Below are positions 9,432 to 58,797 of a stretch of DNA of 64,000 nt, piece after piece. The notes under the pieces were generated by a model that saw nothing but the letters and a program-made list of their open reading frames with translations, was not told the DNA's origin and ran no database searches. A program made the position numbers and the translations under genes. Location: assembly GCA_040767085.1 (NCBI GenBank), contig JAXGPF010000013.1, positions 64,001 to 128,000 of the forward strand. Direction: 5' to 3'. Origin of the DNA: Kiritimatiellia bacterium. GTDB taxonomy: Bacteria > Verrucomicrobiota > Kiritimatiellia > JAAZAB01. Numbering within the stretch: position 1 is the stretch's first letter; the number at the start of each line of letters is the position of its first letter.

Positions 9432-12400
9432 ATGCTCCCTTTCACACGTAAGATGTTGATGGATTGGGCGGGCCCGGCGGTGTTTCACCAGGGGCGGGTG
9501 TTGTTTGAAAAAGGGCTGGTGATGGAGGCGGAGTACCGCCATCCGCTGGCGCGCGGCACGATCCGTTACGGGCAGGGCACCATCACCTGCCGCTTCAAGC
9601 TCCTGCCTAATGGCGCCTCCGAGAATCAATGCCCCTGTTACGACAGCCAGCAGCGTTGGATCACCTGCGCGCACGTGGTGGCCACTGGATTGGAATTGCT
9701 GAAGCAGGATGCCCGGCGCGAATGGGTCAACGGCGCGCCGCCGCCGGCCCACGCGCCGCCCGGCCGGCCTTACCTGTGCCGGGAGCCGCCGGGAGCGGAT
9801 GGCGCCGCGCCGGCGCGCTTGCAGCTCCAGATGCCGGAAGACTGGGTGGCACACTGGCATCGGACCGGCCGCGTGCCCGTGGCCTGCCTGGTGGAATATG
9901 CCGGCCGGACGCAGGCGGCGGATGCCGTGCCCACGGATTTGCCGCTGGCGTTTGCGCCCCAGGACGAGGCGGTTTTGTTTGTCTGGGAGGATATCGCCGG
10001 CGGCCCGGCGCCGGGCCGGATGGACCTGGCGGCCGCCGATTTAATTAACTTGCTGGCCCTGCATGCCGGCCGGCACTTGCTGCATGGCGCGGCAGGCCAG
10101 CCTGTGCCGGTCATGAACGCCCGGGTGGAGACGCGCGCCAGCGTCAGTTTGGATTGGCATACGGGCGAGTTGCATTTAAGCTTGCGCGGCGACATACCCG
10201 GCGGCCGTCCGGCCGCCGCGCCGGATGGCGCCGTTTACCTGGTGGCGGGCCGGGCGGGGTGGGTTTGGCAGGATGGCGCTTTCTGGCCCCTGGCATCGGT
10301 GTTGCCGCCGCCGTTGCAGCCGATTTACCAGGGCGCGGTGCGGATCGAACGCCCGGCGGTGCCGCGCTGTCTGCAGGTGGAACTGGATTTGATCGCCCGG
10401 CATATTCCGCTGGATTTGGATTTTGACAGGAATCTTTTCGCGATCGTGCCGGCGTCGCCGCGCTACCGTTTGACCGTGCGGGGCAGCCTGGCCTCGCTTT
10501 CCGCCGCCTTGAACGCGGAGTATGGGGACATCTCGCTCGTGGCCGGCAAGCCGGACCCGGCCGGGTACTTCGCCCTGCCGGATCCGGAAAATATCCTGGG
10601 CTATGCCGTGCGCAACCTGGAGGATGAAAAGCGCGCCCTGGAGCGCCTGGCGGAGTTTGGCCTGCGGGGCGACTGCGGCGATGCGCTCTCGCCGCTTGCC
10701 GGTCTGCGCGAGGTGCGCAATTTTCTGGGCGGCGTTCTGCCGGCCTTGCGGCGGATCGGTTGGCGCGTGGATTTTGCCGGCAGCATCGCCGGCTTCATTG
10801 AGCAGGCGGAATTCGCCATGCCGGTGGTGCATATTCATGACGAACCCGGCGCGGACTGGTTCGAAGTGGCGCTGGAATACGAGGATGGCCGCGGCAACCG
10901 CCTTCCGCCGGCGGAAATTCAACGGGCGCTGTTGAAGGGCGATGCCGGGTTGGAATACGCCGGACGGCTGATCCTGCTCGATACCGGCGCAATCGAAGCT
11001 GTGAACGAAATCTTCCGCGATTGCGCCAGCCGCGACGGCGCCCGGCCCGGCGCTTTCCGGTTGGCCGGCGTCTATACCGCCTATGTTAAAACCGCCCTGG
11101 CGGCGCTGGATGGGATTGATATCGAAGCGCCGCCGGGCTGGGCGGCGCGCGCGGACGTCCAGAACCGCGTGCAACCGCCGCCGCCGCTGCAATTGGCGCC
11201 GGCCCTGGACGGCCTCCTCCGGCCTTACCAGAAGGAGGGTGTGAACTGGCTGCGTTTCCTGGAGCAATGCCTGTTCAGCGGCATCCTGGCCGATGACATG
11301 GGGCTGGGCAAAACCCTGCAGGCCCTGGCCTGGTTCAGCCTGGCGCGCCTGCATCCGCCGACGCGCGGCAAGCCCTCCCTGGTGATCTGCCCCACCAGCC
11401 TGGTGGAGAACTGGGAGGCGGAAGCCCGGCGGTTTACGCCCGGCTTGCGCACCCTGGTCATCAACGGCGCCGACCGGCACGCGCATTGGGGGGATGTGCC
11501 CGCCTGCGACCTGGTGATCACTTCCTACGCCCTGTTGCGCCGCGATGTGGAACAATACCTGGAATACGAATTCGCGGTGATTGCGCTGGACGAGGCGCAG
11601 CATATCAAGAACCGCTCCACCCAGAATGCCATGGCGGCCAAACGCCTGCGCAGCATGCACCGCCTGGTGCTGACCGGCACGCCGATCGAAAACAGCATTG
11701 CCGATTTGTGGTCTATCATGGACTTCCTCATGCCGGGCTACCTGGGCTCTTACGAGTCGTTTCGCCGGCATTACGAATTGCCCGCCGCCCAGCCCGGGCC
11801 GGAGGCCGCGCAGGCGCAACTGCAGTTGCGCCGCAAGCTGCATCCCTTTGTCCTGCGCCGGTTGAAGCGGGAAGTCGCCCGCGAATTGCCGCCGAAGATC
11901 GAGCGGCTGGCGCTCTGCACCCTGACGCGCGACCAGCAGCAGGTGTATGATGAATTTCTCGCAAACTCGCGCCGCCGGCTTTTCACCATGGTCACCGCCC
12001 AGGGGTTCCAGCGCGCGCGCATGGAAATTTTGAAGACCCTGCTGCGTTTGCGGCAGGTGTGCTGCCACCTGGACCTGGTCAAACTGCCGGACGCCCCCAG
12101 CGGTCAACCGTCGGCCAAGCTGGAACTGTTCATGGAACTGCTGGACGAGGCCGTGGACGGCGGCCACCGCGTCCTGGTCTTCAGCCAGTTCACCTCGATG
12201 CTGGCGATTCTGCGCCGCCGGCTGGATGAATGCCGGATGCCTTTCAGCTACCTGGACGGGTTGACCAAGGACCGGCTGCGGGTGGTGAACGAGTTCAATG
12301 CCCGCCGGGATATTCCTGTGTTTCTGATGAGCTTGAAGGCCGGCGGCACGGGCTTGAACCTGACCGGGGCCGATATGGTGATCCATTTCGATCCCTGGTG

Positions 12401-56364: not shown

Positions 56365-57036
56365 ATGAGACTGTGGATCATACTCGTTTTGCTTGCTTGC
56401 TCTACGGCGTACGCACATCCACCGTACGAGCACATAATCGGCTCTATCGACACGCCGAACGGTCGTGTGGAGATTCGAGAGGGGTATATCGACGGAATCC
56501 TGTTCAGCGATCCCATCCGGTTCGCTGCGTATTCCGGTACTAACCTTGTTGCAACCACAGACTACGCGTGGAACACATCCATCGTATCATTCGAGAAGAA
56601 CGCATTCCACGCCTATCACTTCCGTACTCCGTTCAGCTTGTTCGCTTCGCGGGTCTGGCGTTTCGGCGCCGCCGGACTGGAGGAAGACGACAGCGCCATC
56701 CATGTAGCCATCTCGCCCTTCGTGTGGCTCTGGACTCGCCCCATATCCCATTGCATTTTCGGCATCCTCATCTCGCTACCCATCATCTTTGCGATGCGCA
56801 ATCGTCCATGGCGATCCAAGGGCGTTGTGGTACTTGGGGGATGTATGGCCATACTCTCTCTGTCTGCGTTTGCCCTCTGCGTGGTCCTTGTCAGCATTGC
56901 CTGCATGCCGTGCTCGCTCTGGATCACGCTGACAATCAGTCTTGCGGCCATAGCTCTGGCGAGAACAATGATCAAGAGGTCGAACAAGCCGCCTGGACAC
57001 GTACCCTTAAAGGCCGCCGCGGACGGCGCCCTTTAA
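56365..57036 (+). CDS. Hypothetical exported/membrane protein (gene-cassette-like)
   Basis: Signal peptide (AYA-HP), three C-terminal TMs, codon usage unlike flanking genes, stop codon inside the attC-like hairpin. Confidence 0.7.
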   Translation: MRLWIILVLLACSTAYAHPPYEHIIGSIDTPNGRVEIREGYIDGILFSDPIRFAAYSGTNLVATTDYAWNTSIVSFEKNAFHAYHFRTPFSLFASRVWRFGAAGLEEDDSAIHVAISPFVWLWTRPISHCIFGILISLPIIFAMRNRPWRSKGVVVLGGCMAILSLSAFALCVVLVSIACMPCSLWITLTISLAAIALARTMIKRSNKPPGHVPLKAAADGAL

Positions 57037-57051
57037 GGTTCGGTCAGGGGC
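56979..57051 (+). other. attC-like site (3' R' box missing)
   Basis: R'' GTCGAAC is complementary to GTTCGAC at 56348; CCTGGAC/GTCAGG pairing with a bulged G; CCTTAAAGG/CCTTTAAGG stem. Confidence 0.6.
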
Positions 57052-57462
57052 CATCGGGGTCGGACCACAGCAACTTGTTGTAAATCATAGTGATAAGTTC
57101 CAAGAGGGGGTGTTTTCGGGCCTTAAACCTCCATTTTCAGGGCCGAAAACAGCGGCATGCACCCCATCTGTGCTTGGGTCTGATCCGTTACCCGACAGCG
57201 CATCATGGAATCTCCCCGGATTCCTTGCTGAACTTGCCGGACTCCGCCGGAGAAAATGAAGGCGGTAAGTAAAGCCGGTCCGCGACAAGATGTTATTTTC
57301 TGAAATTTAGGTGAATATCGGCGTCAAATTATCTCCGCATTGTTTGGCCTTCATGCCGACCGGTCTATCATATCCCGGCGCCCCGGCATGGGGGGTACTT
57401 CCCCGGACGGATACGAATATTCTGCGCAAAGTAGCGGGAAAAATGCCAAGAATCACGGACTG

Positions 57463-57495
57463 ACCCCTTGCCCCCTTGCCCCCCTTGCCCCTTGC
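57463..57495. repeat. Short tandem CCC(C)TTG repeats (4 units)
   Basis: ccccttg cccccttgc cccccttgc cccttgc. Confidence 0.6.
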
Positions 57496-57625
57496 AGGAG
57501 ACCGGGATCGAACCGGCGATCCCGCCGCAGCGGCGGGACAAGCCCCGCCAGGGAGCGGGGTAAACCCCGCCACGTAGCGGGGCAAGCGTTCAGCCTTGTC
57601 CCGCCTCCTGGCGGGATTGGGAAGC
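57494..57625 (-). pseudogene. Partial tRNA-Gly copy carrying four hairpin insertions
   Basis: ggagaccgggatcgaaccggcga [3 inserts, 57520-57586] cgttcagc [insert, 57595-57616] ttgggaagc. Confidence 0.85.
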
Positions 57626-57862
57626 GGGTAGATTACGCAGGAAATCTTTAACACCTGCGGCCTTGATTTTCTTTTCTATCCCGCGCGCAACAGTGTAGCT
57701 GTCCACGGTCGTATGAAAAACAAGTTGCCAGTCGTGAGCGCGAGCCGTCCACTTGCTTCGGCCCTGCAAGTGTTGTTTCAGCCTGCGCGCAAGATGCTTC
57801 GATATGCCGACATAAAAACGGCCGAGGGATTTTGAATACAGGATGTAGACGTAAACATCCAT
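57590..57862 (-). CDS. Small GIY-YIG nuclease family protein (90 aa)
   Basis: YVYILYS..RFYVGIS..RRLKQH..KWT..W.LV..ARGIEKKIK. Confidence 0.88.
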   Translation of the reverse strand: MDVYVYILYSKSLGRFYVGISKHLARRLKQHLQGRSKWTARAHDWQLVFHTTVDSYTVARGIEKKIKAAGVKDFLRNLPASQSRQEAGQG

Positions 57863-57871
57863 GTAGGAAAG

Positions 57872-57939
57872 TGGAGCGGGAGACCGGGATCGAACCGGCG
57901 ACCCCGCCGCAGAGCGGGGCAAGCGTTCAGCCTTGTCCC
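57872..57939 (-). pseudogene. tRNA-Gly 3' fragment (with CCA) carrying one full and one truncated hairpin insertion
   Basis: tggagcgggagaccgggatcgaaccggcga [57902-57923] cgttcagc cttgtccc. Confidence 0.85.
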
Positions 57940-57946
57940 TTAAAAG

Positions 57947-58021
57947 TGGAGCGGGAGACCGGGATCGAACCGGCGACGTTCAGCTTGGGAAGCTGACATT
58001 CTACCACTGAATTACTCCCGC
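57947..58021 (-). tRNA. tRNA-Gly (CCC)
   Basis: GCGGGAGTAATTCAGTGGTAGAATGTCAGCTTCCCAAGCTGAACGTCGCCGGTTCGATCCCGGTCTCCCGCTCCA. Confidence 0.96.
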
Positions 58022-58037
58022 AAAACTCAATTCTAAT

Positions 58038-58177
58038 CGGCGACCCCGCCGCAGAGCAGGGTAAACCCCTCCGCAGAGCGGGGCAAGCGTTCAGCCCTGT
58101 CCCGCCTTCCTGGCGGGATTGGGAAGCTGACCCCGCCAAAGAGCGGGGTAAACATTCTACCACTGAATTACTCCCGC
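58038..58177 (-). pseudogene. tRNA-Gly 5' 51-nt copy carrying four hairpin insertions
   Basis: Removing 58044-58087, 58096-58118 and 58131-58152 gives an exact match to 57971-58021. Confidence 0.88.
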
Positions 58178-58797
58178 AATACGTCTCTCTACACCGGTTA
58201 AACTGGCAGAAATATCCCGCTGAGTCAATCTTATTTCCATGGATGATGCAATGGGGGATGTACGACAAATTTGGTGGTGATTCGAATAAACTTTAATTTC
58301 ACGGCGGATTTCAGTGTGATATATGATCTCGCCATAGATACAATTCTGTAAATTCCGGTAATTTCGGCCAGGTTACACCATCCTGGCCGAAATTGGGCCA
58401 CCGCGTTGCGAATTCCGCTCCCCGAGCTTGTCGAGGGGTTCGAAAAGACAAGGCAAGTTTGGGGTGGATGCGTGGGCGCAGGTGGGCGGGGCTAATCTGG
58501 TGATTGCCCCGCTCCCGGCAAGCCCGCCCGCAGGGTCCGCGCAGCGGACAGACGCCCCAAAGAACGCCTGTGCGGCTCGCACTCGCCGCCGTGCTTTTCG
58601 AACGGAATTCGCTACGCACCCCCACCGCCGCACTACCCCAACAAATTTATCTTACATCCTGCAATGGCGAGCCCGGCTGCCCACACCGCCTTGTCCAACG
58701 TTTACTTGATAAATATCCGCCGGAAATGTATCTTTGACTGACATGGCCGGGCATGGGGCGCGGCTGGCATGACTGGCAAGGGGACGGAACTGAGATT

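Follow-up and report, generated by a model that had tools for sequence, protein, structure and literature searches.

This locus raises the question of how hairpins of 22-23 nt came to interrupt copies of a tRNA gene, and whether the small GIY-YIG nuclease gene lying among them takes part in moving them. We addressed this question in the window (the whole stretch of 64,000 nucleotides analysed), in the genome to which it belongs, in related genomes and in metagenome contigs. The first-pass annotation had interpreted the locus as a tRNA-homing mini-element, an interpretation that our analysis partly supported.

The tRNA-Gly locus and its inserted units

Read along the minus strand, the locus consists of a 5' tRNA-Gly fragment, a 16-nt linker, an intact tRNA-Gly(CCC), a 3' fragment, the GIY-YIG gene and a second 3' fragment. 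The 5' fragment (58038-58177, minus strand) carries four units: one at site 1, after tRNA position 25 (58131-58152, minus strand, tag TTTA); one in the opposite orientation at site 2, after position 37 (58096-58118, plus strand, tag CCTG); and, at site 3 (after position 45), a stack of two units in partial decay (58044-58087, minus strand, individually 58044-58065 and 58066-58087). The linker (58022-58037, minus strand) contains the word TAGAAT, a possible -10 box judging by its letters, at which the promoter scan made no call. The intact tRNA-Gly(CCC) that follows (57947-58021, minus strand; ARAGORN, Rfam 66 bits) is the sole tRNA-Gly with a CCC anticodon found in the assembly. Beyond it lie an 8-nt remnant of a site-2 unit, comprising the tag and the start of the stem (57932-57939, plus strand; like the linker, read directly from the sequence), and a 3' fragment ending in CCA (57872-57931, minus strand) with one site-3 unit (57902-57923). 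The nuclease gene, P0001, occupies 57590-57862 (minus strand), and the last fragment (57497-57625, minus strand) holds one site-2 unit (57595-57616) and three different stacked site-3 units (57520-57586; individually 57520-57542, 57543-57564 and 57565-57586).

Nine units of 22-23 nt each thus interrupt three partial copies of tRNA-Gly(CCC) at three fixed junctions. All nine were confirmed at the starts previously annotated, as were the junctions: GA^CGTT in all three copies, AGC^TTGG in two copies plus the 8-nt remnant, and TGA^CATT in one. When the units were excised in silico, the exact tRNA-Gly(CCC) sequence was restored with no base missing or duplicated. The claim that 58038-58177 without its inserts matches the intact tRNA held to the base, but only over tRNA positions 1-51; since the other two copies cover positions 38-75 and 29-68, none is a full tRNA.

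Written tag first, a unit reads YYTR, YCMCGC, loop, GCGKGR, that is, a tag at the foot of a 6-bp GC stem with a variable loop. The hairpin consensus proposed earlier described seven of the nine units and missed those at 58044 and 58066, whose stems are broken; DNA folding gave these two -2.3 and -4.1 kcal/mol, against -6.6 to -10.1 kcal/mol for the other seven. Units occur in both orientations and in stacks one to three deep, with loops and tags differing within a stack, and a single junction accepts the different tags CTTG, TTTA and CCTG. We rejected the possibility that the tag is a target duplication, since tags differ at one site, and the proposed likeness to REP/IS200 anatomy without target duplication was supported. 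Among 51 tRNA-embedded units, a tally that includes some near-copy loci, stem pair 1 was T-A in 32, C-G in 18 and T-G in one, and pair 3 was C-G in 42 and A-T in nine, alongside 40 distinct loops. With both sides of the stem changing among these units, the comparison indicates that the stem is under selection.

The 5' fragment retains the ancestral upstream flank: in the relative G002 (L042) the same upstream DNA is followed by an unbroken tRNA-Gly. The intact tRNA gene is therefore probably a replacement copy, which agrees with the earlier proposal that an intact tRNA was maintained by duplication.

Several trivial explanations were considered and rejected. Mis-assembly or a collapsed repeat does not account for the locus, as metagenome contigs from four studies match unit-bearing DNA with 0 differences and the same design is found in other species. 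These contigs cover the locus piecewise, with no single one spanning the entire stretch: X1 covers 57300-57813, X5 57505-57921, X4 57994-58316 and X6 58075-58316, so that the fragment at 57497-57625 is supported by runs X1 and X5. In one contig of X6, 57867 is followed directly by 57943, a skip of 75 nt (57868-57942) that gives the layout of the congener G003; this contig has a depth of 3.3 and a 35-nt repeat at the joint, and the skip could be an assembly join. Chance hairpins were rejected because the genome holds 70 matches to the pattern and 6 to a reversed-pattern control. A known RNA family or tRNA intron was also rejected, as Rfam returned the intact tRNA and one chance-level match only, and the broken copies are fragments. 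Against simple fold-back template switching, the outer flanks lacked complementarity in three targets compared by eye. In RNA runs, only 0.04 of the words were present.

The surroundings of these copies hold other features. A gene-less stretch between inverted TIR-like words (57057-57466) abuts the last tRNA copy, which it may have truncated; on its right side the terminal sequence is 89% similar to those bordering a Y1 HUH gene on contig C22, and the stretch fits a TIRtron-type relic (PMC3733652). Between this TIR-like end and the tRNA copy are four short repeats of C4-6 followed by TTG (57463-57495), each resembling a tag plus one stem arm; they could be half units or a stutter of the TIR end. 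On the far side of the relic lie a 223-aa membrane-like ORF with no Pfam match and then a long imperfect palindrome resembling an integron attC site (together 56365-57050). At 58253-58400 a separate dispersed repeat begins; it measures about 145 nt or more, recurs at least 9 times elsewhere in the genome and is also present in congeners.

Units across the genome and their link to a nuclease clade

The units are not confined to this locus. Across the genome, 44 clusters contain 68 copies, whose tags are CTTG (35), TTTA (28) and CCTG (5), and a wider tally of the 4-mers preceding perfect stems gave the same leading tags. By its sequence features this is a REP-like genome-wide family. The first reading of a tRNA-homing element was borne out in its link to one GIY-YIG clade, described below, but the hairpins are not restricted to tRNA genes.

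A second target could be recognised in its empty state. This is a GTAG-tagged repeat with 25 uninterrupted copies (allowing up to 3 mismatches), in which, by eye, both of two fixed sites are filled by pattern-matching units in 10 clusters and about 11 further clusters have one of the two units decayed. The repeat, found for example at C7:40746 and C22:483215 of this genome (G000), has its two units facing inward when filled. The doubly filled repeat may itself spread as a block. In inverted pairs the tags face each other with 4-8 nt of target DNA in between; the spacing was 7-8 nt in 18 of 21 pairs in the genome and 4 nt in one, and many of these 21 are copies of one repeat, although the spacers nonetheless include several unrelated sequences. 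In G024 (L049), a pair of units enclosing, once more, 8 nt of target DNA lies in another tRNA, Gly(TCC), at sites other than those used here. The relative G011, a genome well suited to following the spread of units, contains 368 unit matches; it has the variant stem CCACGC/GCGTGG, and its pairs are separated by 0-7 nt. Carriage by viruses was not seen, the insert pattern having 0 matches in viral contigs.

We then compared the positions of units with those of small GIY-YIG genes. The 12 tRNA-Gly-bound GIY-YIG rows formed one branch of the tree (support 96/99), near which fell tRNA-Pro rows carrying another hairpin. Of 12 Gly-clade loci, 11 had a unit no more than 200 nt away, as against 1 of 43 other small GIY-YIG loci (10/11 versus 1/39 with duplicates removed), counts to be read with the kinship of the genomes in mind, as they are not independent and several loci had been selected for the very feature being counted. 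The distribution of the unit follows a single nuclease clade. When metagenomes were scanned with the site-2 DNA pattern alone, 9 loci were found and a nuclease homologue adjoined the unit in 5 (two of these five being the same sequence). The same pattern occurred in 3 of 251 high-quality genomes of the phylum, with the nuclease at that place in all three, and the site-3 pattern in 4 of 401 genomes of the class, with one match outside a tRNA. A profile search of 61 genomes listed 142 places; a tRNA sequence on the same strand was near the gene in 28 of the 29 loci examined, a few of which rest on short matches. Word-indexed protein and locus searches yielded 2 relatives each.

Seen from the side of the target, 8 of the 17 tRNA-Gly(CCC) loci that contain units also have the nuclease, compared with 0 of the 14 that lack units (5/10 and 0/11 where flanks were complete), a few of the 31 loci having been picked for matching the gene. 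At least 24 units were found in 8 of 9 clade-bearing genomes versus 8 of 52 others, a comparison to which we give little weight, as the threshold was set after the counts were seen and the genomes are related. The association is not without gaps: 9 of the 17 unit-bearing loci (5 of the 10 with complete flanks) have no nuclease, and G206 (113 units) and G023 (45 units) have clean tRNA-Gly and no Gly-clade gene that we could find, while no small GIY-YIG gene was found in G274 (114 units, 70% complete). These three assemblies are fragmented, with 70-87% completeness, and gene loss would look the same. The association with GIY-YIG genes anticipated by the first-pass annotation held for the Gly clade, with the exception of some unit-rich relatives that have clean tRNA-Gly and no cognate nuclease.

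Similar arrangements were observed at other tRNA genes. At a tRNA-Asn locus (G000:C11, about 10600-11600) a tandem array of 71-nt 5' tRNA fragments is followed by another small GIY-YIG gene and a further broken copy; every fragment in this array carries a related but different hairpin (TCCGGC stem, TTAA tag) in place of 10 nt. Two near-identical small GIY-YIG genes that have a long structured leader follow tRNA-Pro 3' ends at G000:C2 218170-218600 and C28 158800-159250, the C2 copy being truncated. In L052, L053 and L054, tRNA fragments arranged in tandem carry insertions of the separate hairpin (GTCCCGAC stem) that belongs to a tRNA-Pro(GGG) clade of the same nuclease type.

These distributions bear on whether units move individually at all. 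An old GIY-YIG cassette might instead have the hairpins as permanent parts of its ends, multiplied through recombination, slippage and gene conversion, with no unit mobile by itself today. Sites 2 and 3 were filled together in all 9 metagenome loci found by the site-2 pattern, and the pseudo-copies in L048, including the spacer between these sites, differ from the host tRNA allele; the pair may thus be inherited with the cassette and not freshly inserted. Passive copying would also suit the GTAG repeat, which by eye is empty or doubly filled and never has one site clean, the identical tandem copies in L002 and L045, which fit slippage, and the 75-nt block between 35-nt repeats missing from one contig. 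However, only some loci have a unit at site 1, stacks combine different tags and loops, and in L003 the spacer between sites 2 and 3 matches the host's variant allele, so that the host's rare base is kept between two units. The pair in L049 occupies different sites of a different tRNA, and unrelated targets share no homology with the unit, whereas homologous recombination cannot put a unit at a new junction. For these reasons we consider purely passive copying unlikely.

Candidate movers of the units

Enzymes of the Y1 HUH type are the usual suspects for tagged hairpins, and the genome encodes several: PF01797 detected 7 loci, a custom profile about a dozen loci or fragments, and NF047646 gave 14 matches, none over its cut-off. 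These three profiles revealed no RAYT flanked by units in the genome, and none was found in the relatives G011, G236, G206, G007 and G274, all searched as incomplete assemblies; nor was any RAYT in the genome flanked by the GTAG repeat. Every Y1 locus in this genome is at least 6.5 kb from the nearest unit. In four unit-rich relatives, 0 of 21 Y1 loci were flanked and a single unit stood at 2, and no Y1 gene was found in G274, which at 70% completeness still has 114 units. With no Y1 locus flanked by units, no REPtron accounts for the family. The check for a RAYT elsewhere in the genome that had been suggested earlier gave no gene flanked by these hairpins, but the dozen or so Y1 loci could act on the units in trans. 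The first-pass annotation had named mis-assembly, a lack of association with GIY-YIG genes and a RAYT flanked by the hairpins as findings that would speak against it, and none of the three was encountered.

Action in trans would mean that a HUH tyrosine transposase (RAYT, TIRYT or IS200 TnpA) excises and inserts the units with the tag as guide, the GIY-YIG cassette only collecting or recognising them. A tag and hairpin without target duplication is the anatomy of REP and IS200 ends (PMC8266576), and scarless joining of tagged hairpins is a hallmark of HUH enzymes. The presence of Y1 loci, the occupation of the GTAG repeat by units, the TIR-bounded relic that abuts the tRNA copy and is related to Y1 element ends, and the abundance of units in genomes where the Gly-clade gene was not found are all compatible with such an enzyme. 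The distances and the unflanked Y1 loci described above argue against it, as does the occurrence of CTTG, TTTA and CCTG at one site, a poor fit to a guide rule; it would also leave unexplained why one GIY-YIG clade alone carries the unit. We therefore regard a HUH enzyme acting in trans as rather unlikely.

The other candidate is P0001 itself. As annotated previously, it encodes a 90-aa GIY-YIG protein (PF01541, E 3.7e-13) whose ATG lies 9 nt after a CCA and whose stop lies inside the next tRNA copy, the last codons and stop being supplied by the tRNA anticodon arm and a unit. Tail peptides of this type were found in 11 of 152 proteins with a loose pattern. Two layouts recur: tRNA, gene and 3' half copy; or 5' half copy, gene, repeated promoter region and intact tRNA. 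Residues Y6, Y17, G19, R27, H31 and E63 are invariant in 50 homologues, from which P0001 would be predicted to be catalytic. Its structure model (pLDDT 84.7) shows no DNA-binding module besides the catalytic domain. The best sequence match among solved structures was the UPF0213 protein BH0048 (1zg2, E 1.5e-9), and the best fold matches of the model were 1zg2 and Slx1; an NCBIfam search gave no family above cut-off.

Comparison with the congener G003 over 78 codons gave a dN/dS of 0.19, indicating purifying selection on the gene, which could reflect a domesticated host function. The units would then act in RNA, disabling duplicate tRNA halves or pausing or stabilising a transcript, and the nuclease would restrict ssDNA that enters the cell or becomes exposed, the role that SsnA has in transformation, with spread as a by-product. 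The start codon lies 8-15 nt past the CCA in 7 loci, so that tRNA 3' processing could free the message, and SsnA lowers transformation in Neisseria (PMC11893778). Domestication is nevertheless very unlikely in our judgement: the patchy occurrence of the system in close kin (tRNA-Gly is clean in G001 and G004), the tandem copies of the nuclease (L026, L028) and the relics that lack the gene all suggest a selfish element. A scan for intrinsic terminators or terminator-like sites at the locus found none.

We consider it somewhat probable that the locus represents a selfish two-part system of the Ssn/NTS kind at tRNA-Gly, whose nuclease nicks near its hairpin and so seeds new units and tRNA-half duplications. 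One part would be the single-domain GIY-YIG gene, situated in or behind a tRNA gene and travelling with a spare tRNA half, so that an intact tRNA survives. The other would be the cognate unit of 20-23 nt (YYTR tag, YCMCGC/GCGKGR stem and free loop), the smallest mobile piece. By analogy with SsnA, which cuts upstream of its NTS, the nuclease would bind a unit folded in ssDNA and nick 0-8 nt 5' of the tag. A new unit joined at or opposite the nick would produce stacks and BIME-like pairs with linkers of target DNA, and breaks at units, repaired against tRNA homology, would give tandem tRNA halves and movement of the gene. We know of no strand-transfer step in GIY-YIG enzymes, so host ligation or another enzyme would be needed for the joining. 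On this reading the nuclease would be what moves the hairpins. Because tRNA-Gly(TCC), which is present in the genome, can back up tRNA-Gly(CCC) through wobble, the latter may be a tolerant target.

Taken together, the exact insertion, the presence of the same hairpins in other repeats and the tracking of a nuclease family make the units look like an undescribed and very small kind of mobile DNA. A bolder form of the two-part proposal, which we offer tentatively as possible rather than probable, is that this DNA is transposase-free: the 90-aa GIY-YIG ssDNA nuclease would itself drive scarless insertion of single units and home its own gene to a specific tRNA, each clade having its own tRNA and hairpin. 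If so, this would supply the mobiliser that is missing for REP-like repeats lacking a RAYT, and BIME-like mosaics would be seen being built unit by unit from target DNA. Since the units interrupt a tRNA gene, every base of the target before insertion can be stated, and the locus documents the insertion of such repeats with unusual clarity. What moves is a single tag with its hairpin, which enters without leaving a scar, and the DNA that separates inverted pairs comes from the old target. A candidate enzyme of 90 aa can thus be given exact substrates and predicted cut positions, which suit a simple oligonucleotide assay, and the system would add a tRNA-bound branch, with new specificities, to the sequence-specific ssDNA nucleases.

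Comparison with known systems

We compared the locus with each system that it resembles. IS200/IS605 elements differ in that the gene here encodes a GIY-YIG protein, not a Y1 TnpA, and in that one site takes three different tags, whereas a guide tetranucleotide sets the target of those elements. Homing endonucleases of the free-standing GIY-YIG kind, among them SegB from the tRNA cluster of phage T4, are likewise selfish genes beside tRNA genes; in contrast to these, P0001 has no extra DNA-binding module, is cellular and not of phage, and is accompanied by mobile hairpins. To our knowledge, Slx1/UPF0213 proteins have no link to repeats or tRNA. P0001 is about 24% identical to them and lacks an Slx4 partner or RING domain, and Slx1, according to the titles of structure entries, cuts branched DNA.

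The closest precedent for the enzyme is the Ssn family of ssDNA-specific GIY-YIG nucleases (SsnA, CDD cd10448), which work with NTS/SRM hairpins, and not a nickase acting on double-stranded DNA. SsnA is described as binding ssDNA at a tagged hairpin, with the cut falling a few bases upstream of the tag, and mutation of Y6, Y17 or E64 kills it (Chenal et al. 2025, PMC11893778); these residues correspond to the invariant Y6, Y17 and E63 of P0001. Both systems, as far as that text describes Ssn, pair a single-domain GIY-YIG gene of about 90 aa with an oriented tag and GC-rich hairpin repeated genome-wide; here, units flank the P0001 gene on both sides and number 68 in the genome. The stem cores, CCCGC/GCGGG, are alike, and SsnA cuts where second units sit in the present locus. 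In contrast, the tag is YYTR and not CGTC, the unit is shorter than the NTS, and the P0001 clade is tied to tRNA-Gly with tRNA-half duplications, whereas the word tRNA is absent from the main text of PMC11893778. Exact insertion of single units can be seen here against empty targets, while mobility is only a hypothesis in that paper's available text. In our tree, three NTS-adjacent proteins, taken from 80 viral-contig loci as proxies for SsnA, formed a branch (100/99) separate from the 37 other rows, which points to P0001 lying outside the cd10448 clade.

With REPs, BIMEs and REPINs, the units share a 4-nt tag at the hairpin foot, tens to hundreds of copies, and inverted pairs with short linkers and no target duplication, as described in the available portions of PMC8266576, PMC3116915 and PMC3733652. 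They differ from REP-RAYT systems in that no RAYT is flanked by a unit and the tag is neither GTAG nor CGTC; CTTG and TTTA were not found in the text of PMC3733652 that we could search. In the REPIN model, as outlined in the sources at hand, the doublet is the replicative unit and singlets are remnants; the linkers here are target DNA instead, and single units and stacks occur, which argues against the doublet as the unit of the present family.

In the titles and abstract openings that were searched, no published description of tRNA-bound GIY-YIG cassettes with inserted hairpins was found. The system described here would act like Ssn/NTS and looks like REP/BIME, but it bears a tag that belongs to neither family and shows no RAYT of the REP kind flanked by its units.
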